A DNA stretch of 64,000 nt from Escherichia coli (GTDB taxonomy: Bacteria > Pseudomonadota > Gammaproteobacteria > Enterobacterales > Enterobacteriaceae). Under the pieces are notes generated by a model that made no database searches, was not told where the DNA came from, and saw only the letters and a program-made list of their open reading frames with translations. The stretch lies in NCBI RefSeq assembly GCF_024502345.1, contig NZ_JALDNN010000001.1; one strand, given 5' to 3'. The translations under genes were made by a program, and so were the position numbers. Positions 23,929 to 36,249 of the stretch are shown piece after piece (positions within the stretch are counted from its first letter, which is position 1; each line of letters begins with the position of its first letter).

Positions 23929-24564
23929 TTTTCCCTCTGCATACTGTTTTGTCGTTTATGTATGCAGGCATGATAGCAAAAATGGCGAGGATGGCTCTGT
24001 TTGCGCCACGCCGATTTTTCTTAGCCCAGACTGGTGAGCTAAATATCTTTAATAAACAGCAGGCAAATCATCGCAATACCCAACATCCCTATCGCCAGCC
24101 AGAACAACGCATGGTAGCTCCAGATTTCAACCATAATTCCGTCAACAGAGCCGGCGATAATCCAGCCGACGCGTGAAGTATTTGCATATAACGTTGTCGC
24201 AGAGCCTATTTTTTCAGGCATCAAGTCCTGAAAATAAAGCATGCCGATACCACAGAGAATACCAAGGAAGATGGCATTAAGAATTTGCAATTCCAGCTCA
24301 ACCGCCGGAGTCGTCGCCATGAGTACGCTGGCGTAAAAACACATTCCACTCACGATAGCAATGAGCATTAATAGTCGCTTGCCAATACGTTTCATGTAAT
24401 AGCCTGCGATTAACATCATCGGAATTTCCAGACCGGCAGCGATACCAATCATTTCTCCAGCCAGTTTATCGGTTAGATGCAGTTCATCAATAATAAATAG
24501 CGGCATATTTATCATGTAGAGATTATTCGCCGCCCACATCATTGAACAAACCACAAAAAGTAGC

Positions 24565-25785
24565 TGTAGATTCAATCTGTCAATGCAACACCCCTTTCAA
24601 TTATCTCTTTCGGTGTTTTGAACTTCAGTGTCTTTCTCGGTCTGTTGTTTAGCTGAGCAGCAACCAGATCTAGTTCATGTTGAGTATATTGGGCAAGACA
24701 TGTCTTTTTAGGAAAGTACTGCCGAATTAGCCCATTTGTGTTCTCATTTGTTCCCCGCTGCCAAGGACTCTGAGGATCGCAGAAGTAAACTTTAACGCCG
24801 GTGCTGACAGTAAATTCTAGATGTCTGGCCAGTTCCATTCCTCTGTCCCATGTCAGTGATTTTCTGAGTTCTGACGGTAAACTCAGGAATTTGTCGGTAA
24901 GAGCCTGATTTACTGAGACAGAATCTTTGCCCCTGAGTCTAAGGATGATCGTATAACGTGATTTTCGGTCTACAAGTGTGGCTATATGAGAGTTTTTTGT
25001 ACCTGAGACTAAATCGCCCTCCCAATGCCCCAGAGAGCGTCTGTTATCGATATTTCGGGAACGTTCGTGAATTGGTGTTCCGTTCACTATGTTAATCGTA
25101 CCTCTTTCGCCTTTGCGGGTATGACGCCTGCCATGGCGAAGGCTATGCGACCGTCGCAGATGCTGTATATTCAGGTGGTGTAGCGCTTCACGGCTACGAA
25201 AGTACAGCGTTTTATAAATTGTCTCAGGTGATATTCGCAGCGTTTTTTGACGTGGTTTTGTTCGCCTTAACCATCCTGATATTTGCTCTGGAGACCATTT
25301 CATCTCCAGCTTTTCCAGAACAAGCTTTCGCAATGGTAAATTTTGATCCAGTAAGCACGGTTTTGGCCTTTTCGCCATTCTGTTGGCTCGGTTATTAGCA
25401 TCAACAGCTTTGTAATAGCGTCTGCCCCGATTACGCTGAACTTCACGTGAGATCGTCGAAGGACTGCGATTCAGCGCAGTAGCTATCGCACGAATGCTCA
25501 TTTTGGCTGACAAACCAGCTCGTATCTCCTCGCGCTCAGACAGTGTCAGGTGAGCTACAGCCCGCTTACGCTCATGGGGTTTTATGCCGCCAGTATCCCT
25601 TAACATAGTGAAGATCGTTCCGGGTTTTGAACCCAGGATATTCGCTATTTCACTGAAGCCTGTTCCGTTCTTCCATAGTTCAAAAACAGAGGCTTTTTCC
25701 TCTGCTGTAAATGTTCGTCTCATTCAAAAAACCTCCGCAACCCCATGTTTTCACATAACTGTTGCGTTGACCAATTGAATCTACA
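24565..25785 (-). mobile_element. IS30 (1221 bp, complete, with terminal inverted repeats)
   Basis: Ends TGTAGATTCAATCTGTCAATGCAAC (24565) and GCGTTGACCAATTGAATCTACA (25785); flanking GC dinucleotide on both sides. Confidence 0.9.
24572..25723 (-). CDS. insI: IS30 transposase
   Basis: 383-aa ORF; matches the IS30 transposase I remember, with an N-terminal HTH region and a C-terminal DDE domain. Confidence 0.9.
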   Translation of the reverse strand: MRRTFTAEEKASVFELWKNGTGFSEIANILGSKPGTIFTMLRDTGGIKPHERKRAVAHLTLSEREEIRAGLSAKMSIRAIATALNRSPSTISREVQRNRGRRYYKAVDANNRANRMAKRPKPCLLDQNLPLRKLVLEKLEMKWSPEQISGWLRRTKPRQKTLRISPETIYKTLYFRSREALHHLNIQHLRRSHSLRHGRRHTRKGERGTINIVNGTPIHERSRNIDNRRSLGHWEGDLVSGTKNSHIATLVDRKSRYTIILRLRGKDSVSVNQALTDKFLSLPSELRKSLTWDRGMELARHLEFTVSTGVKVYFCDPQSPWQRGTNENTNGLIRQYFPKKTCLAQYTQHELDLVAAQLNNRPRKTLKFKTPKEIIERGVALTD

Positions 25786-26875
25786 GCCGCGTATCTCGCT
25801 TTCTATGGATGGAGGGTAAAATTTCTACGGGTTGGGTAACGACAGGAATATTTCTTTGTATTGATGGCAAAAACAACCAGACTATCAGCCCGCAAACAAC
25901 AAATGCGATGGCAGCGGTGAGATACATCACTTTAAAACTAAATCCCATTGCCAGTTCATAAGCGAGCGGTGGCCCGATAACCCAGGCAAGCGAGATCTGA
26001 GCACGTAAAAATGTACTGAACATGACCGTCTCACGGCCTGTTCTATCGGCGTGTTCACGGGCGAGGGCGAACATTTGCGGGTTTGCGGTGGAAGCAAAAC
26101 TACTCAGAAGTACGCCCGTTGAGAGGAGAATGAAGTAGTTGCGATTCCACGCAAAAAGCGTGCAGGCCAGCACTCCAAATAAGCAACATAGCAGAATCAG
26201 TAATTTACGGTCGCCTTGTTTATCGGAGTGCCTTGCCAGAAATTGACTGACCAGAATTCCCATAATAGCGCTACCGGTGAAGAAAAAACCTACCATTATA
26301 GGACGGGCTTTCAGTTCATCTGCGAGGAATATACTTAGGGTAGGAGTCTGAAGAGCGCCCGCAATACCCGTCAGAAAGGCGACAAGTAAAAATGCCGCGG
26401 CAGTGAGATCAAGTATTTTTGATGGAGTGGTAGCCGTTTTTTGCATTCTTCTGAATCACCGGGCGAAAAAATATAACTGAGTTACAAATAAGTACCAGTC
26501 GAATGAGTATTGTATTAAGAATTTTTGAGTATCGCTGATACAACCAGAAAGCAATGCTAGCGCAATATTATAGGGCCAGCAATTGAGATTATTAGCAAAA
26601 GCATGTTAAGAATTAATTACCGAATTTATATATTAATTATAGTAAGGCAATGAGCTATTTTTGATAGTAAAAATAAAACAAGTTGATTTGATATATTAAA
26701 TGAACAAATTAATCTTGATGGCAGTCTGATTATTGGTGAAGTTTATAGTCAGTTTTTTTCGCCAGCGGTTAAAGAAATAGAATAATCGTATAAAAAAGGG
26801 TGTTCTGGGGCGAGTAAAACAACATCTTCACCTTAATGGCGATACAGTTGGCTGAGAGTCAGCAGGGGGGCAAAT

Positions 26876-27000
26876 CACCTGCAAATAAACACGGCGCATA
26901 CTGGCGTGAATATCGCGGATGCGTTCGAGGACAGAAGAACCGACAGGCGGATTCTTCAGCCGCTCATCGTCCATCACAAAACCTTAGACCAGGTATTCCT
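26876..27000 (-). pseudogene. degenerate internal fragment of a rhuM-family gene
   Basis: About 125 bp align to the intact rhuM-like gene at 27741-27890, with an internal deletion of ~25 bp and several substitutions; no intact ORF. Confidence 0.6.
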
Positions 27001-27067
27001 GAAGCCGATTGAATATTGAGCAGTAGAAAATATCTGGATTGACAGTATTACAAGGGGTTGGAGAACG

Positions 27068-27100
27068 TCAGGAGAGGCATTTTGGCGATCACAGGAGTCG
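27068..27100. repeat. degenerate direct repeat of the selC 3-prime end plus flank (candidate distal att site of the island)
   Basis: TCAGGAGAGGC....TGGCG----ATCACAGGAGTCG compared with TCAGGAGAGGCTAATTGGCGGAAGATCACAGGAGTCG at 35848-35884. Confidence 0.55.
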
Positions 27101-27214
27101 CATTCAGCGGCTTGATCTGTTGAATTTAGTGGTTTTTATCGTGTTGGATTTTTGTTGGTGCCCCCTATTATGCCCCCAAATGATTTTGCTTGTGGTGGTT
27201 ATAGGCATTCAGAG

Positions 27215-28252
27215 CTACTTTTTAGGCTCTGTTTTCCATTGTAGCAAACCGGCGATATCCTTCTCACCTTCGGCTTCTTTTAAGCGCCGTTGTTGTTCAG
27301 CAAACTGACCATACTCCGCCTGCGCTTTTTCATCGGCCATTTTCTTACTGATTTTACCTGCGCCTTGCAAAACCTCACGGTCGTTAAATTGCAGGAACTG
27401 ATCCAGCTTATCCTGCCAGTCGCGTAAAAAGACCTGCTGACGACGACGGGCCTGATCCTCGGCAAAATCCAGCCACATGTTAACTACGCGGTTAAGCTCG
27501 CTGACTTCATCCTGAGTGAGATAATTTTTTGCCACCGTCACGTCACCCTTACGCACCTCTTCACCTTTATAGCTGGTCAGCCCCATATGTGGCTGGCTGG
27601 CGTCAGCACGCAGATGAATGAGTTCAGCGGCGGTATGTCCGGTACAGGCAAAATGTAACTTGTTCTGGATGGTTTGAAAAAACTGCGTGGTTTCTTTCAG
27701 TGATGGTTGATAGTCGGCGGCTAACGCAAAGATCTCTCGCACCCGTAAATAAACCCGACGTTCGCTGGCGCGAATATCGCGGATACGCTCCAGCATCTCA
27801 TCGAAATAGTCGGGCACAGCCGATGAACCCACGGGCGGGTTCTTCAGCCGCTCATCGTCCATCACAAAACCTTTGATCAGGTATTCCTGGAGCGTCTGGG
27901 TTGCCCACTGGCGGAACTGCGTGCCGCGAGGGGAGCGAACGCGGTAGCCGACAGCAAGAATAACAGGCAGGCTGTAGTGAAGCCTGTTGCGGCTTACCTG
28001 ACGGCCACCTTCCTGTTGAACTTGTAAGTAAGACTTACAGGTTGCGTTTTGTTCAAGTTCGCCTTCTTCATAGATCGCTTTAATGTGCTGTGTAACTGCC
28101 TGGGGAGTGATCTGATAAAGGTTTGCGATGGTTGCCTGAGGGAGCCATAGTGTCTCTTGCTCAAAGCGGCATTCAACACGAACTTCACCGTCATCGCTGG
28201 CAAACATAACAAATTCGCCTGCCGGGGATTGGGTTAAGTATTTATCTGTCAT
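27215..28252 (-). CDS. rhuM: RhuM-family protein (virulence-associated, function unknown)
   Basis: 345 aa with the family signature LPVILAVGYRVRSPRGTQFRQWAT. Confidence 0.8.
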   Translation of the reverse strand: MTDKYLTQSPAGEFVMFASDDGEVRVECRFEQETLWLPQATIANLYQITPQAVTQHIKAIYEEGELEQNATCKSYLQVQQEGGRQVSRNRLHYSLPVILAVGYRVRSPRGTQFRQWATQTLQEYLIKGFVMDDERLKNPPVGSSAVPDYFDEMLERIRDIRASERRVYLRVREIFALAADYQPSLKETTQFFQTIQNKLHFACTGHTAAELIHLRADASQPHMGLTSYKGEEVRKGDVTVAKNYLTQDEVSELNRVVNMWLDFAEDQARRRQQVFLRDWQDKLDQFLQFNDREVLQGAGKISKKMADEKAQAEYGQFAEQQRRLKEAEGEKDIAGLLQWKTEPKK

Positions 28253-28339
28253 GCCGTCTCCGCTTATATCTGACTCGCAATGCTGTAATCCGCTTAGTAT
28301 GCCAGAAATTCTTGGTGAAGCTTATTACGCAGATAGCGT

Positions 28340-29284
28340 TTATTTTGCGGGCAGCGCTCCCGGATAATGCTTTGCCACAATGTCATTCATCTTCTCCACC
28401 AGGTCCAGACGCTTAAACGTGATATGCCCGTTGCCTTTCTGAAAGTAGCGAATGGTGAACATATCGTCTTTAAAGACCTGTTGATGCGGGTTATCGCGAA
28501 CAAAATTCATAAATCGGATAGAGACATCATGCCGGTTGTCAGGAATGGTTTTGCCATCCAGCAGGTAAAGCATCCGTTCCAGATCGGCGAGCTGATCGCG
28601 CCGCCAGCCCCAGTTCAGACTGAAGCCCCATCTGTCATGCTTCACCAGATTGTTGACGATAATCTTCTTACCGAAGTAACAGGGATTATTGGTTTTGTAG
28701 TCCCAGCTTAACCCTTTAAATACATTGATAATCCCACGTTCGAAAACATCCTGTTTATTGTGGTGGAGTTGTTCAAAGGTACTTAGGATGTTGGCTTCAC
28801 TGATGGCCGGAAGATCGCCCTCTTCGAGGTTTTTAGCCCACTGGCTGCGGGCTTCGGCATCCATCAAGGTCAACATCCCGGACTTCAGCATGAGATCGCG
28901 CCAGATACTGCGATCGATATTGCAGGTAATCACCGGCATCGCTTTATCGACTGGTTGCATCAGCCAGCAGTCAAAGGAATGGCCCTGTCGCATCGCCCAA
29001 TGCTCCGCCACATCACCACCGATGCTGGAGGTTAGCCGTGAGATATCATCAAGCTTATGGATCAGGATTTCTATCAGGCTCAGCGCAGCATCACGCCCTG
29101 TGACGATGCGTTCTATACTGGTTGAGCAAATTAGCTCATTATGATCGGTTAAAACTTCAGCTTCTGTTTGCATGATATTTTGTCCGTAAAAAGCAAACAC
29201 GCCCGCCGGGAGTGGCAGGCGCATTATGCAATGAGTAAATAAGGAAGACAGATCGGGAATGTAATTCGGGAAGGAGGCTCGCAA
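28340..29284 (-). CDS. hypothetical protein, possibly DUF4942-like as is commonly found downstream of CbtA-family toxins
   Basis: 314-aa ORF directly downstream of the cbtA-like gene; family assignment is from memory only. Confidence 0.4.
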   Translation of the reverse strand: MRASFPNYIPDLSSLFTHCIMRLPLPAGVFAFYGQNIMQTEAEVLTDHNELICSTSIERIVTGRDAALSLIEILIHKLDDISRLTSSIGGDVAEHWAMRQGHSFDCWLMQPVDKAMPVITCNIDRSIWRDLMLKSGMLTLMDAEARSQWAKNLEEGDLPAISEANILSTFEQLHHNKQDVFERGIINVFKGLSWDYKTNNPCYFGKKIIVNNLVKHDRWGFSLNWGWRRDQLADLERMLYLLDGKTIPDNRHDVSIRFMNFVRDNPHQQVFKDDMFTIRYFQKGNGHITFKRLDLVEKMNDIVAKHYPGALPAK

Positions 29285-29287
29285 GAT

Positions 29288-29620
29288 TCAGCGTGTCGAA
29301 AGATTATGGCCTTGTCGTAACAACCCCATTGCCTGTCGCGCCCGCAAAATGTCTACAGCCCGCAGATAAGGCGATTGTTCCTGCCAGCTAAATCCTTTGC
29401 GATCGATGCGAACGAGTTCGTATTTTTCCACCAGAAAGTTCACGGCATCGGCAAGAGTAACGCCTGCGTTGATATGTTCCTGAATGACTGTTTCATCGCA
29501 GAATGGCGTGTCACTCAGGGCCAGGCCATAGTGTTGTGCAAGTAGACGGGTCAGTAACATCTGCCAGACGGCCACAGGCGACGGGCATGGCTTCGCTATG
29601 TGTGCGTCCTCCTTTCGCAT
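29288..29620 (-). CDS. CbtA/YeeV-family type IV toxin homolog, with no cognate antitoxin gene upstream
   Basis: Translation [61 protein letters not shown] resembles CbtA ([31 protein letters not shown]); its 5-prime end overlaps the upstream gene. Confidence 0.65.
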
Positions 29621-30329
29621 TGCGCCCGTTCAGACCACCTTTAATCAGGTTCTCCTGAATGCGCTGATAGGTTGTCCAGAGGTCACCGGACTCATCCTGC
29701 CAGCGACGGGGAGCCAGTAGCTGAGATTCCGTCACCGGCTGATGCTCTTCGCCAAAACGATACGTCAGCGCAGCTTGCGCCAGCGCCGCCTGTGCTGGTG
29801 GAGGTAGCATGAGTGACTGCATGGCATCGCGCTTCTCTTCTACGCGGTCAAATATCCCCAGCACTTCGTAAGCCCCTTCAATGACCTTCTCTACTACGTT
29901 GCCTTTATGCGGGACACGCACCTCCCCGAACGACTCGCCGCAAATCAACCCATTTTGGCAAACAGATCTGAATAAACCCGGCAGCATTTGATATGAACTG
30001 GAGCCGTCATGGCTGTTAAGCAGGATTATTTCTGGCACTTGTTTGCCAGTAATCTGGCCTTCTCGGCGTAGGCGCAGCATGTGTTTGGTGTGCTCACGCT
30101 TGCTCTGGTCCCGCACTCGGGTCTGGCAGGCAAAGAACGGTTGAAAGCCTTCACGCTTCAGGTTATCGAGCAGAGTGATTGTCGGAATGTAGGTATAGCG
30201 GTCACTGCGGGATTCATGTTTGTCTTCGCTGAAGACGCTGGGCACATAGTGCGCCAGCTCCTCGCGGGTTAACGGGCGGTCACGGCGCACAAGATTGGTA
30301 GCACCAAAACGGCTGGCTAAACGGGTCAT
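29511..30329 (-). CDS. DUF932/YfjQ-like protein of CP4-type prophage remnants
   Basis: Starts MTRLASRFG..., as I recall for DUF932 proteins of CP4-57-like elements; its 3-prime end overlaps the cbtA-like ORF by 110 bp. Confidence 0.5.
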
Positions 30330-30399
30330 AGGCGACTCCTTTAAAAATGGGCATAAAAAAGCCACCCCGAAGGATGGCCTGGATTGAAAGGCTGGATTA

Positions 30400-30891
30400 T
30401 TAAGGTGAAACAGAAGGGTGTATCTGCGATGCAGTCTTTTCTGAATCTGGTATCGGCAATGCAGATAGTTCGGCAGGACTAAGCTTTCCTGCGCGGTAAA
30501 GTTGCAGTTTCACCAGAATCGGCGCTTTTTGCGACTGAAGGTAACTCAGGCACCATTCCCGCTTCAGGACTATCCTGACCGGGGCAGGCAAAAGCTCATA
30601 TGCTTTGCTAAAAACGACTTCAACAAAAGCATCATCACTCAGTTTATCCTCGGCAATATTCAACAGACCATTGATGACAATATTTTCCAGTAACAGCCTG
30701 TATTTGTCAGAACCCGTTACCGAAGCTTTAACCGTGTTTTCCGGTAAGTGTTCAGAAGATGTGTCATGATTTTCTGTGTGTGCTTTTCTGCGTGAGAAAT
30801 TCAGCTTTTCTGTAAGGCTACGAAATTTTCCTGTGCTATTTTCAGACATCGTAATTTTATCCTGTGGCCTCCGCGTCTTGCCATCAGGCAA
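30400..30891 (-). CDS. hypothetical protein
   Basis: 163-aa ORF just upstream of and co-oriented with the DUF932 gene; no recognisable motif. Confidence 0.4.
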   Translation of the reverse strand: MPDGKTRRPQDKITMSENSTGKFRSLTEKLNFSRRKAHTENHDTSSEHLPENTVKASVTGSDKYRLLLENIVINGLLNIAEDKLSDDAFVEVVFSKAYELLPAPVRIVLKREWCLSYLQSQKAPILVKLQLYRAGKLSPAELSALPIPDSEKTASQIHPSVSP

Positions 30892-31736
30892 GTACGGCGA
30901 GTTTTTTTATCGCTTTAATCAGGCTAAAGGTGGTCAAACCTGCACCTAGAGCCCTGACCGTGACCGAATGGCTTCGCATCAACGTAACCCCCATTACGCA
31001 CAGGACAAGTTGCCACGTACAATCAGGCCATGGGGGGTCATTACCCGGCATGTCCGTAACCACTTCGCTTTGACTATGCACGGAAAACACCTCTACTTGT
31101 AGCCATTAGGGAGCCACTGGCCCTGTTTGCGAATATCAGTAATAATGCCCCCCTCTTTGACCGAAATGGTACGCCAGCTTGGTTCTTTGCTGGATGCATT
31201 CCCATAGGTATACCCGACAGTCATTGTCAGGTTTTCGCCTGAAGTTGTGGTGAGATCAGCCTCATACTTAGCTTCGGTATTTTGTTTGCGAATAAAACGC
31301 ACGGTGTTGATTGCAGAACAGCGAATACTGCTTTTCGCATATTCAAAGGAATTGTTAGCCATTTGGCATCCGTCGTTTTTAATTTCATCCGTCAGGTTTG
31401 CAGAAACATTAAAGTTCTTAGGTACAGGGGCAAATTTAGCCATGTCGTTTCGCATAGTCGGTGGATCTGTCTGAAGCACAAGATAAACAGGACAATCTGA
31501 TTTGCCTACTTCACACGCTTTTGCCACGTAATCACGTACTGGCCATCCAGCATTACCGAAATATTCCGCACCACTTTCATCTTTGCATTGTGACCAGGTA
31601 GCTTTTTTCCCCATCATAATGCCGTCTACCAGCACACAGGTGACGGCTTTTACAGGCTCACCATCCCACCGGACTGCATCAAAGGGCTGAATGCCTGTAT
31701 GGTTCACGTCAAGCGTGTAGGCCTGTGGATTCCTAG

Positions 31737-32932
<1,196 letters not shown>

Positions 32933-33038
32933 CTAATCAGATAGAACAGTCCCGGATAATATTCGGGACTCATACACTGACATACTGAGTTCTGAATTTA
33001 GTAGCAAGATTACTTATGATTATTTAAGGATAGTAACC

Positions 33039-34004
33039 ATGCCTTTAGATTTAAGTAACACCTTAGTTATTGGCATCAGCGCAACCGCGCTTTTCGACAT
33101 GAGTGAATCCGATCGCATGTTTCGCGAAACCTATGCGACCGATCCTGATAGCGCCATTGAAAAGTATCGCGCCTACATGCTGGAGCACGAAAACCAGCCT
33201 TTACAACCAGGAACAGGCTATCCCTTGGTCAAAGCGCTTTTGGGACTCAACCAGCACCGTCAACCCGATGATAAATCACCGCTGGTTGAAGTTGTCGTGA
33301 TGTCGCGTAACAGCCCTGATACCGGTATCCGTGTCCTAAATACCATTCGCCATGACAAACTCGATATTACACGTTCAGCCTTTACCGCAGGTGAAACTGT
33401 TGCCGATTACTTAGATGCTTTTGATGTGGATCTGTTTTTAACGACCAACGTTGAAGATGCGCAAAAGGTGATTGATTCCCGGTTCTGCGCCGCAGCAATC
33501 CTGAAAGATCCGCCTTCTGACGCATCTGATATCCCCGAAGGGCAAGTGCGCATTGCTTTTGACGGTGATGCAGTGCTTTTCTCTGATGAAAGTGAGTTAG
33601 TTTATAAAACTCAAGGGATGGCCGCTTTTCACGCCCAGGAGGATGCGCAGCAAGATATCCCGATGGCTGAGGGACCTTATGCCACTTTGCTAAAAAAAAT
33701 AGCCAAGCTTCAGGAGCGATTGCCAACACGAGTCGAGTATTCTCCCGTCCGTATTGCGCTGGTGACAGCCCGAAATAGCCCTTCGGAAATGCGCGTCATT
33801 AAAACGCTGAGAAGCTGGGGGGTATATGTCGATGAAGCTTTTTTTCTTGGCGGTGTAGAGAAAACAAAAGTTCTGAAGGCGTTTAAACCGCACATTTTCT
33901 TCGACGACCAGGATGTGCATTTGGTTGCTGCCGCAAAGGTTGTTCCTTCCGGTAAAGTACCTTATGCCAGTAATTCAGAGCTTTTTGAAAACGTAGCATC
34001 ATGA
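33039..34004 (+). CDS. HAD-superfamily phosphatase resembling the bacterial 5-prime-nucleotidase family; cytoplasmic
   Basis: HAD motifs in the C-terminal half (IAFDGDAVLF, LVTARN, FFDDQDVH); no signal peptide; N-terminal ~170 aa is a separate domain. Confidence 0.6.
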   Translation: MPLDLSNTLVIGISATALFDMSESDRMFRETYATDPDSAIEKYRAYMLEHENQPLQPGTGYPLVKALLGLNQHRQPDDKSPLVEVVVMSRNSPDTGIRVLNTIRHDKLDITRSAFTAGETVADYLDAFDVDLFLTTNVEDAQKVIDSRFCAAAILKDPPSDASDIPEGQVRIAFDGDAVLFSDESELVYKTQGMAAFHAQEDAQQDIPMAEGPYATLLKKIAKLQERLPTRVEYSPVRIALVTARNSPSEMRVIKTLRSWGVYVDEAFFLGGVEKTKVLKAFKPHIFFDDQDVHLVAAAKVVPSGKVPYASNSELFENVAS

Positions 34005-34052
34005 AACTTTAAACAAATAGCCATCTTTACATCTAGATGGCTATTTGTTAAT

Positions 34053-35267
34053 TTATGCCGTCTTCCTAAATGCACCCTCTACCACACCCCCGCCTTTCCC
34101 CAGCTCACCAATGTAATCCGCATACCACTGCATCATTTGCCTACGCCCATCAAGATACTGCGCATGGTTATACGTGCCGCGAATCGCATTCTTATCGACA
34201 TGGGCAAGCTGCGTTTCAATCCACGCTGAGTTAAAGCCCTGCTCGTGCAGAATGGTACTCATCGTGTGGCGGAAACCATGTCCCGTCAGCCTGCCTTTAT
34301 ACCCTAATAACTCAATGACCTGATTGATGCTTTCCTTGCTGATCGGCTTGCGAGGATCATTCCTGCCGATAAAGACCAGCGCGTGATGTTTTGATATCGG
34401 CTCAAGTTGCTTGAACAGCGCAATAACCTGTTCTGAGAGCGGCACAATATGGGGCCGTTTCATCTTCATCACTTCTGCCGGGATCTCCCATAGTTTTGTC
34501 TCAAAATCGATATCCTCCCAGCGTGCGAAACGTAGTTCTTGCGTGCGTACACCGGTTAACATAATGATCTGAGTGGCGGTCTTCGTGATAACACTGCCGG
34601 TATAACCCGCCAGATCATTGAGAAAGTGAGGTAGTTCATTGGCAGTAAGGAAAGGAAAATGTACCTTTTTTGGCGTAGCTAAGGCGCTGGCAAGATCGGG
34701 GGCGGGGTTGTAATTCGCTCTGCCGGTAATAATTGCAAAACGGAATACTTCCCCGCAGCGCTGGCGAACTTTACGCATTTTCTCCAGCGCTCCGCGTTTC
34801 TCCATCTTACGTAGCGCTTCCAGTAGTTCCATTGGCTTAATATCAGCAATAGGGCGCTTACCGATGTAGGGGAAGATGTCCTTCTCAAAGGTGTCGATGA
34901 TTTCATCGCGGTAGCGCAATGACCAGCGATCGGCTTTAGTCTGATGCCACTCGCGAGCCACGGCTTCAAACGTGTTCTCTGCATTCAGTTTCTGCGCAAG
35001 TTTCTCGGATTTTTTAGTTTCTCCGGGGTCGCCACCTGCCGCCAGAATCTTCTTCGCCGCATCACGTTTTTCACGGGCGTCTGCCAGAGAAACATCGGGG
35101 TAGACGCCAAAAGCGAGACGCTTCTCTTTACCTGCAACGCGATATTTCATGCGCCAGTAGCGTGAGCCATTGGTTGCTACTTCAACGTACAACCCTCCTG
35201 CATCACCTAAGCGATACGTCTTTTCTCTGGGTTTTAACGCACGCACTTTTGCATCAGTTAATGGCAT
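34053..35267 (-). CDS. P4/CP4-57-type tyrosine integrase
   Basis: 404 aa with an N-terminal arm-binding region (YRLGDAGGLYVEV..YWRMKYR) and catalytic R..HGFRHT..Y residues. Confidence 0.9.
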   Translation of the reverse strand: MPLTDAKVRALKPREKTYRLGDAGGLYVEVATNGSRYWRMKYRVAGKEKRLAFGVYPDVSLADAREKRDAAKKILAAGGDPGETKKSEKLAQKLNAENTFEAVAREWHQTKADRWSLRYRDEIIDTFEKDIFPYIGKRPIADIKPMELLEALRKMEKRGALEKMRKVRQRCGEVFRFAIITGRANYNPAPDLASALATPKKVHFPFLTANELPHFLNDLAGYTGSVITKTATQIIMLTGVRTQELRFARWEDIDFETKLWEIPAEVMKMKRPHIVPLSEQVIALFKQLEPISKHHALVFIGRNDPRKPISKESINQVIELLGYKGRLTGHGFRHTMSTILHEQGFNSAWIETQLAHVDKNAIRGTYNHAQYLDGRRQMMQWYADYIGELGKGGGVVEGAFRKTA

Positions 35268-35706
35268 CGTTGTTTCCTCCTGAAAGCAAGAATGCTTTGA
35301 CAGCCTGGGTTTGTTCGGGTGTCAGGGATAGGGTTTGTTTGGTTGTTTTGATGGTTAAGCCGTAATGCTCTGAGAGGGAAAGTTGAAAGGATTGTTTGGC
35401 CCGTTCCTGGCGACGTTGCTCTCTTTCGTGAGCCTTATCGATTGCAGGATCGTAGCCCTCTTTGATTTTTACTCTGGCTTTATCCCTTAGCACAATGGCT
35501 TCTTTAATCGTGACGTCCGGCCATGCTCCAAATGTGAGGCTTTTCTCCTTCCCCTCTATCCGGTACTTCATCCGCCAGCACTTTGACCCCGTTGGATTCA
35601 CCAACAAAAAGAGCCCTCTGCCGATAGAAAATTTGTAAGGTTTACTACGGGCATCAAGTGACTTTATTATTTGATTATTAATGATTTTTTGTTCTTTTGG
35701 TGGCAT
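35254..35706 (-). pseudogene. N-terminal remnant of a second P4-type integrase
   Basis: Residues ~20-95 are homologous to the N-terminus of the adjacent intact integrase (CWRMKYRIEGKEKSLTFGAWPDV); it then runs out of homology and ends 14 bp inside the next gene. Confidence 0.7.
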
Positions 35707-35862
35707 GTCATTTTACCTCCAATGGTTGGTATGCCCAATTGTGCCCCCAAAGGCGTATTGATACCAGTAGACTCCGGTTGACCTCAGAATACAAGGAAGG
35801 CTTGATATATAAGGGATGAGAAGAGATTTTGTTGACGTCAGAAGAGTTCAGGAGAGGCTAAT

Positions 35863-35957
35863 TGGCGGAAGATCACAGGAGTCGAACCTGCCCGGGACCG
35901 CTGGCGGCCCCAACTGGATTTGAAGTCCAGCCGCCTCACCGGAGACGACGATCTTCC
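35863..35957 (-). tRNA. selC: tRNA-Sec (selenocysteine, 95 nt including CCA)
   Basis: The reverse complement reads GGAAGATCGTCGTCTCCGGTGAGGCGGCTGGACTTCAAATCCAGTTGGGGCCGCCAGCGGTCCCGGGCAGGTTCGACTCCTGTGATCTTCCGCCA. Confidence 0.97.
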
Positions 35958-36249
35958 GCGCCTCGATTGCTACATGGAGGCGGGGCGCATTATAGCTACT
36001 TCCTTGAGTTTCTACATCCCCCAGATCAGTTTTTTCCGCCTAATACACGCAGCGTATTATCACGAAAGCATTATAGTTCATATAAAACCCATATTTTACA
36101 ATGATATATGAGCGGAATTAACGCTACCACGATCACATAAAACAAGAATCATAAATTAATAACCAGATATCGGAATATTCGCTCTCACAGGGATGGTTTA
36201 CAAAATGCGTTATCGGTCTCAGCACCCCTATAGCATCAAGGAAAAGCAG

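Follow-up and report, generated by a model that had tools for sequence, protein, structure and literature searches.

The distal end of a selC island in Escherichia coli: a probable attachment site with P4-family arm repeats

In an Escherichia coli chromosome, a degenerate copy of the end of a tRNA gene lies within positions 27041-27180 of a 64,000-nucleotide stretch (the window, which here means this whole stretch of DNA). Does this copy mark one end of an integrated island, and are the motifs beside it sites for the island's integrase? We consider it very probable that 27041-27180 is the attR of an island inserted into the 3' end of selC by a P4-family tyrosine integrase, with the arm repeats as putative sites of that enzyme. 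Such a feature is ordinary, already understood biology of a known kind. Coordinates are collected in Table 1.

Borders of the selC island

The sole tRNA gene that ARAGORN finds in the 64-kb window is selC (tRNA-Sec, anticodon tca). Its right neighbours are yicJ and yicI, and setC, yicL and nlpA lie to the left of 27068, which identifies the region as the E. coli selC locus. An IS30-family transposase gene (24572-25723) interrupts setC in the window, leaving ORFs at 25781-26446 and 24039-24575. An earlier note on this DNA had described a degenerate direct repeat of the selC 3' end, and this repeat is real: 27068-27100 (TCAGGAGAGGCATTTTGGCGATCACAGGAGTCG) aligns with 35848-35884 (TCAGGAGAGGCTAATTGGCGGAAGATCACAGGAGTCG), with 30 of 33 aligned bases identical and one 4-nt gap. 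The duplicated unit comprises the final 22 nt of selC (35863-35884) and 15 nt of downstream flank (35848-35862). Between the flank copies (27068-27082 and 35848-35862) 12 of 15 bases are identical, with three substitutions. The gap in the distal copy is genuine, GGCGGAAGATC being shortened to GGCGATC; the block CGACTCCTGTGATC[TTCC]GCCA is present at 35863-35884 and is found at 27083-27100 with 4 nt missing.

Comparison with the empty site defined the junction. The empty selC site of K-12 MG1655 matches window positions 26460-27100 at about 99%; the homology ends at 27100/27101, and the K-12 alignment runs from 27100 directly into the body of selC, while no K-12 homology exists from 27101 on. 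Because K-12 homology stops at 27100/27101, 27083-27100 represents the displaced selC 3' end and 27068-27082 the native flank. The same flank was matched in 4,522 of 5,426 E. coli genomes, and the end point lies at 27100 or a few bases from it in most of the genomes listed, which are spread across these flank matches. The inserted DNA is 27101-35862, or 8.76 kb. The earlier note had proposed an empty-site comparison as the means by which its reading could be refuted; K-12 MG1655 and most E. coli genomes place the junction at 27100/27101, and the reading stands. Its further claim, that the layout is that of attL and attR for a tRNA-targeting integrase, is borne out by an empty site that joins the flanks at the identity block and by the presence of arms on both sides. 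Neither ARAGORN nor a repeat search revealed an extra copy of the selC core between the two island ends. The segment 35863-35884, the 3' end that now completes selC, was most likely supplied by the island, because island-type-specific bases start directly after the CCA.

Table 1. Coordinates of features at the two ends of the island and within it (positions in the window)
Feature	Position	Strand	Basis or remark
K-12-type chromosomal flank downstream of selC	26460-27067		About 99% identical to K-12 MG1655 3836317-3836950
Native flank directly 3' of selC, TCAGGAGAGGCATTT on the + strand	27068-27082	-	Identical to K-12; 12/15 against the island copy
Displaced selC 3' end, attR core, chromosome-derived	27083-27100	-	K-12 alignment ends at 27100; 18 of 22 nt, without GGAA
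Island-side P' arm of the distal junction	27101-27214		Without K-12 homology; 100% identical in CFSAN051542 and G3/10
P' arm doublet: TGCCCCCTAT (27159-27168) and TGCCCCCAAA (27171-27180), then tail TGATTTTGC	27154-27189	+	12-bp spacing
Full-length rhuM, first cargo gene at the distal end	27215-28252	-	ORF; "virulence protein RhuM" in CFSAN051542 and G3/10
IS5-family element	31734-32935	+	Inverted repeats 31734-31752 and 32917-32935; transposase ORF 31805-32785
P4-type tyrosine integrase, 404 aa	34053-35267	-	Arm-DNA-bind_3, Phage_int_M and Phage_integrase domains; PRK09692 match
orf150, stand-alone arm-type DNA-binding domain protein, 150 aa	35254-35706	-	Sole Pfam domain Arm-DNA-bind_3; 14-nt overlap with the int start
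Degenerate inverted arm copy TGCCACCAAA over the orf150 start codon	35696-35705	-	Motif scan
Island-side P arm (attL), including the orf150-int promoter region	35707-35862		Module kept in E. coli, Serratia and Proteus selC islands
P arm doublet: degenerate TATGCCCAAT, then TGCCCCCAAA at 35742-35751	35725-35751	+	Repeat search, arm alignments
Island-borne sequence just 3' of selC, TCAGGAGAGGCTAAT on the + strand	35848-35862	-	Resembles the chromosomal flank; kept among selC-island P arms
Last 22 nt of selC, identity block, attL core	35863-35884	-	ARAGORN, repeat and K-12 alignments
selC (tRNA-Sec), intact	35863-35957	-	ARAGORN; aligned part identical to K-12

The chromosomal flank carries traces of its own. 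The part shared with K-12 holds an internal rhuM fragment at about 26842-26973 (the K-12 pseudogene yicT), and 26934-27005 is 90% identical to 27822-27893 within the full-length rhuM of the island. As the fragment is already present in the K-12-type flank, the K-12 site is the scar of an older selC island. No core-like or P'-tail-like sequence beside this scar was found in 26447-27067, where the single C5 tract sits within the rhuM fragment on the opposite strand. At the other border, the island DNA directly 3' of selC (35829-35862, TTTTGTTGAC..GAGTTCAGRAGAGGC) is kept in all aligned selC-island P arms. Over its last 11-15 nt it is similar to the chromosomal flank at the empty site, and the hexamer CAGGAG forms a direct repeat, with one copy in the selC T-arm and the other in this island flank. 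A search for a terminator downstream of selC found none in 35150-35990, so that the conservation of this flank is not explained by a terminator; it may be an extra core-proximal protein site.

Arm repeats and the attP of phage P4

The motif that the earlier note had placed at both ends is real and lies on the island side of the core, but its coordinates shift. The best ungapped repeat pairs 27154-27180 (GTTGGTGCCCCCTATTATGCCCCCAAA) with 35725-35751 (GTTGGTATGCCCAATTGTGCCCCCAAA), both on the + strand and identical at 22 of 27 positions. The exact 10-mer shared by the two copies, TGCCCCCAAA, occurs in the 64 kb only at 27171-27180 and 35742-35751; it was expected 0.23 times, and at least two matches arose in none of 100 shuffles. 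By contrast with this exact form, TGCCCCCWAW with one mismatch allowed was not enriched across the window (15 found versus 16.4 expected), indicating that the signal resides in exact paired copies and their placement, not in motif density. Measured into the island, the two copies lie 59-80 nt from the distal junction and about 97-120 nt from the proximal one. Each island arm carries a tandem TGCCCCC(W)A(W) pair, 12 bp apart and in the same orientation; in the int-side doublet the first copy is degenerate, with GCCCAA instead of GCCCCC. When the IHF consensus WATCAANNNNTTR was searched for with at most one mismatch, no match was found in either arm.

The GenBank record of phage P4 (NC_001609) annotates 12-nt "attP arm sequence repeats", which allow a direct comparison. 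P4 has one doublet just upstream of int (AGATGCCCCCAA, TTATGCCCCCAA), another across the 20-bp core (ATATGCCCCCTT, TTGTGCCCCCAC) and a copy inverted over the int start codon (ATGTGCCCCCAA). A virtual attP for the window was made by joining 35690-35884 to 27101-27215. In it the P' doublet stands at +59/+71 from the core, versus +57/+69 in P4, and the int-side copy at -122, versus -126/-114. The two systems have in common a TGCCCCC repeat with A/T-rich flanks, 12-bp tandem doublets of equal orientation on both sides of the core, an inverted copy over a start codon (that of int in P4 and of orf150 in the window) and an integrase of equal architecture. They differ in target, which is leuX for P4 and selC for the window island, with unrelated core sequences, and orf150 is missing from P4. 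P4 replicates as a satellite phage, whereas the window holds a decayed CP4-type island with rhuM, DUF4942, YeeU and DUF932 cargo. Since the P4 repeats match in sequence, in doublet arrangement and in distance from the core, the window motif is a P4-family arm repeat, kept between P4 and the window island though the other arm DNA is unalignable. The suggestion that the motifs could be arm-type integrase sites thereby gains weight: they are homologous to annotated P4 attP repeats and accompany a P4-type integrase with an Arm-DNA-bind_3 domain, and we regard them as putative sites.

Between selC and the integrase gene, 596 nt away, lies orf150. The integrase shares 43% identity with P4 Int across 408 aligned positions, and its N-domain is the part best conserved with P4 (53-59% identical versus 42-44% for the remainder). 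This domain matches the arm-binding domains 3ju0 and 3jtz/3rmp with E values of 7e-23 to 4e-25. These solved domains (3jtz, 3ju0, 3rmp), which the N-domain of the window integrase resembles, come from the P4-like integrases of HPI and HAI7, which target asn or other tRNA genes, unlike the window integrase with its selC target. By the lambda/P4 model, the arm repeats would be bound by the N-terminal Arm-DNA-bind_3 domain, and Int would bridge them and the core through its two DNA-binding domains. In a circular form of the island the arms would flank the core as in P4 attP, an arrangement that would aid assembly of the recombination complex. Once integrated, the attL copies would overlap the orf150-int promoter and probably autorepress orf150-int.

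Repeats of this kind have been listed for other selC islands. For AGI-3 of APEC BEN2908 and GIselC17584/1 of STEC, the part of Saile et al. 2018 that deals with their ends (citing Chouikha et al. 2006; PMC6174562) gives a 16-bp core repeat, TTCGACTCCTGTGATC, and 21-bp G5/C5 repeats near the two ends, TTTGGGGGTACTTTAGGGGGT and TTTGGGGGTTCTTATGGGGGT, and in that part the repeats stand without an assigned function. These islands share the selC target with the window island, and their 21-bp repeats are reverse complements of the ACCCCC-type doublets seen in BL21. They differ from it in having the ACCCCC variant and no orf150, the window island being of the TGCCCCC variant.

Arm variants, integrase classes and orf150

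How far the arms are shared was examined across selC islands. As a conserved module, the selC-proximal arm recurs in 1,632 E. coli genomes. Aligned P arms (window, S43, BL21(DE3), O157:H7, SC406, no107 and two internal junctions) diverge strongly around the doublet; a CCCCA core is invariant and a TTGA block downstream of it is conserved, and the doublet keeps a fixed distance from the core. The arms of Serratia and Proteus likewise retain the doublet amid divergent sequence. The conserved block of the distal arm reads GTGTTGGAT...[A/G]CCCCC...[A/G]CCCCCAAATGATTTTGC. P' arms related to the window's are present in SC406, no107 and Yersinia ruckeri, the last being almost identical. A pattern scan with one genome per species, using GATCACAGGAGTC followed after 60-85 nt by CCCCCAAAT, returned 17 loci in 17 species of about 10 genera (Serratia, Hafnia, Yersinia, Enterobacter, Phytobacter, Trabulsiella, Yokenella, Lelliottia and Pseudocitrobacter, as well as E. 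coli), and the doublet was found in 17/17.

The arms come in two variants. In the window, SC406 and no107 the TGCCCCC type occupies both island ends; Serratia and Proteus, compared at the selC-proximal end only, have it in that arm. S43 and BL21 carry the ACCCCC type at each end, and it was also seen in the O157 proximal arm and to either side of the internal junction of Z1322. Among 5,426 E. coli genomes the TGCCCCC variant is rare, with 2 identical and 4 related genomes. The first 90 residues of the integrases form two classes that follow the same split: the window, SC406, no107, Serratia and, more distantly, Proteus on the TGCCCCC side, and S43, BL21 and O157 IntL on the ACCCCC side. N-domain identity is 87-98% within a class (71-73% for Proteus) and 62-73% between classes, although the full-length integrases are 78-87% identical. 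Measured against the P4 N-domain, the two classes are not told apart by overall identity, with 53-58% for one and 57-59% for the other. An assignment of the S43 integrase to the window type, which would have broken the match between arm and protein, was rejected when the N-domain comparison put S43 in the other class. The match fits a co-adaptation of the arm-binding domain and its sites; it could also reflect co-inheritance of one module, and the covariation rests on few independent lineages per class.

At Int residues of about 24-32, a strand reading GLY(V/L/I)EV is common to P4 Int and the class with TGCCCCC arms; the same strand reads GMYLLI in the class with ACCCCC arms and GLFLLV in orf150. 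This strand is a candidate, from the sequences compared, for setting specificity toward the base before the C5 tract. Complete attP-like junctions, with P arm, core and P' arm, were also seen inside composite islands, in Z1322HEC0002 (L005 1900-2230), between a LEE segment and a CP4-type segment, and in Trabulsiella (L036). Internal junctions of this kind are what tandem integration at selC would produce.

The gene between the proximal arm and int belongs to a family of its own. Members of the orf150 family have 148-159 aa and consist of Arm-DNA-bind_3 and a conserved C-terminal segment with an invariant LSLT (LSLTP) motif; homologues are 91% identical in Citrobacter, 81% in Serratia, 78% in Hafnia, 60% in Proteus and 34-43% in metagenomes. 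Searched with a profile of the C-terminal segment, 50%-identity clusters gave 76 matching representatives, of which about 40 have a length of 143-159 aa. In all contexts fetched (L038-L042, L044 and L045 among the relatives) orf150 overlaps the start of the downstream gene by 10-14 nt, and wherever the contig is long enough that gene is a P4-type integrase. The gene order selC-arm-orf150-int is conserved; in Serratia and Proteus orf150 lies about 155 nt from selC, behind a TGCCCCC-type arm. Among selC islands it is confined to the lineage with TGCCCCC arms, and it is decayed in E. coli SC406 and no107. The decayed homologues in SC406 and no107 had suggested that orf150 is a truncated integrase and the island a chimera of two elements. 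This was rejected because orf150 is conserved at 148-159 aa down to 35% identity and always overlaps a full-length int.

The predicted structure of orf150 has a mean pLDDT of 81, and its N-terminal part superposes on 3ju0, 3jtz and 3rmp with an rmsd of 0.9-1.3 A. The fold search matched the N-terminal arm-binding fold only and gave no PDB match for the C-terminal part. A literature search found no paper describing an orf150-like protein or its function. On sequence grounds, orf150, which through its overlap is translationally coupled to the integrase gene, may be an undescribed accessory factor that sits on the arm repeats, either setting directionality or repressing the operon.

In a Proteus mirabilis contig (L042, 5836-8450) two reverse-transcriptase (RVT_1) genes come after the selC-orf150-int module. 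A retron is the cargo of the selC phage phiR73, which these genes recall. This retronphage, reportedly described by Sun, Inouye and Inouye in 1991, is said to have a P4-like integrase and to duplicate the selC 3' end on integration.

With these data the other explanations of the repeats can be weighed. Both arms travel with the integrase as one module, so that shared variants may be co-inherited, and the relaxed motif is not enriched across the window; the shared motif might thus be an inherited similarity of the termini, left over from common ancestry or an old duplication and now without a part in DNA binding. We think this improbable. The repeat survives between P4 at leuX and the selC islands, although their arm DNA cannot be aligned and their integrases share no more than 43% identity, its spacing and core distance are kept, and the doublet persists in about 10 genera while neighbouring bases vary. 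It is likewise improbable, and if anything a little more so, that the repeats are mainly operators for the orf150-int operon rather than arm sites for recombination, even though the int-side doublet lies 20-45 nt upstream of the orf150 start and its first copy overlaps a promoter-like site on the minus strand (-35 at 35737-35732, -10 at 35715-35710). In the O157 selC island, IntL brings about a roughly 4-fold repression of its own promoter fragment, which spans the P arm homologous to the window's (Panis et al. 2010, PMC2951348). Integrases arranged tRNA-then-int are generally autoregulated (PMC2951348). LEE/933L IntL of O157:H7 resembles the window integrase in its tRNA-then-int layout, with the int promoter within attL, and the O157 P arm aligns with the window arm and keeps the doublet; IntL differs in its N-domain class (68% identical in the first 90 residues) and in its ACCCCC-type repeats. 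An operator role does not account for the equally conserved doublet at the far end of the island, which lies beside the 3' end of rhuM, with no int promoter there. Moreover, in KplE1, where IntS is a different integrase and the arm sites contain TAAA, these sites also act as operators (PMC2951348); as the same sites serve both functions there, an operator role is an added role and not an alternative.

That 27068-27100 is no island junction at all, and represents a chance or local tRNA-like duplicate or the ends of two tandem elements, is hardly credible. Tandem selC islands with internal attP-like junctions do exist, as in Z1322HEC0002 and Trabulsiella, and the 150-aa ORF initially resembled a truncated second integrase. 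Against this, the K-12 empty site joins 27100 directly to the body of selC, there is no third core copy between the ends, both arms are of the TGCCCCC type, and the 150-aa gene, far from being a remnant, is conserved as a companion of this integrase class. An attR with putative arm sites for a P4-family integrase therefore remains the preferred reading of 27041-27180.

Displaced-core deletions and island decay

In the displaced selC core small deletions of 1-4 nt recur at one spot (27083-27090 in the window), between GGC(GG) and GATCAC, or between GATC and GCCA in selC orientation. Among the 13 E. coli distal ends that were read, a non-random sample, the core is intact in 6 strains; 1 nt is missing in CFSAN051542, G3/10, S43 and Tig228, 3 nt in BL21, and 4 nt in the window and strain 2D. 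The deletions occur in at least three unrelated arm types among these ends, and substitutions elsewhere in the displaced core were found in none of the 13. Counts of the exact variants with a K-12-type flank in 5,426 genomes were 210 for 1 nt missing, 65 for 3 nt and 18 for 4 nt. In the 17-species scan 2/17 cores were intact; that scan required an exact GATCACAGGAGTC, which renders substitutions there undetectable. Near-identical arms can have differing cores, being 1 nt short in S43 and in Yersinia artesiana and intact in Lelliottia, and a single island occurs in two core states, the window lacking 4 nt where CFSAN051542 and G3/10 lack 1 nt.

The textbook P4 model explains neither orf150 nor the core deletions. 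The deletions could mark the position of integrase cleavage, through abortive cleavage and misrepair, or they may represent a mutation that arises repeatedly and locks islands in position, or a result of selection for fixed islands. A slippage hotspot and an old deletion inherited through island turnover at the core are further candidates. The combined proposal, with orf150 as an accessory factor of the arm repeats and the deletions as a cleavage-misrepair mark or an island-fixing mutation, is put forward tentatively, and we would sooner expect it to fail than to hold.

The window island itself is decayed. From the distal end its order is rhuM; the DUF4942, YeeU-antitoxin and DUF932 genes; the IS5-family element; a 5'-nucleotidase gene; the integrase gene; and the 150-aa ORF. 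Its nearest relatives, in CFSAN051542 and G3/10, are 100% identical to the window in both junction arms. The junction matches in CFSAN051542 lie about 27 kb apart, which makes that island roughly three times the size of the window island. The window matches CFSAN051542 (L003) up to the IS5 element, where the blastn match ends at 31734, and again from IS5 onward. This break points to a deletion adjacent to IS5, on its left, that removed about 16 kb. In CFSAN051542 the corresponding DNA includes an AlpA/Vis-like excisionase gene (L003 25264-25470), beyond the last segment shared with the window. The deletion also took TerY-P-type and other cargo genes, and a segment with the CbtA toxin and RadC (CFSAN051542 L003 17902-20515) is also absent from the window, at 29597/29598.

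No excisionase was recognised in the window island among ORFs of 60 aa or more, those at 30400-30891, 31093-31806 and 33039-34004 being without a PHROG match. A mobile island should have an intact core, and the distal core lacks GGAA. With the attR core damaged and the excisionase region gone, excision is unlikely. As judged from its sequence, this copy, with an attR core 4 nt short and about 16 kb including the excisionase gene deleted, is probably immobile and fixed in place.

The main value of the analysis lies in correct annotation: the borders of the island are fixed to the base (27101-35862). The core followed by CCCCCAAAT 60-85 nt on provides a simple signature, with which a single scan located distal island ends in 17 species. 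P4 arm repeats are common to selC islands with differing cargo, of LEE type, of CP4 type and, in Proteus, retron-like. A stand-alone arm-binding protein of natural origin, should it be confirmed, would add a new kind of regulator to tyrosine-integrase systems, and the deletion hotspot, if likewise confirmed, would allow the place and manner of island fixation to be read from genomes.
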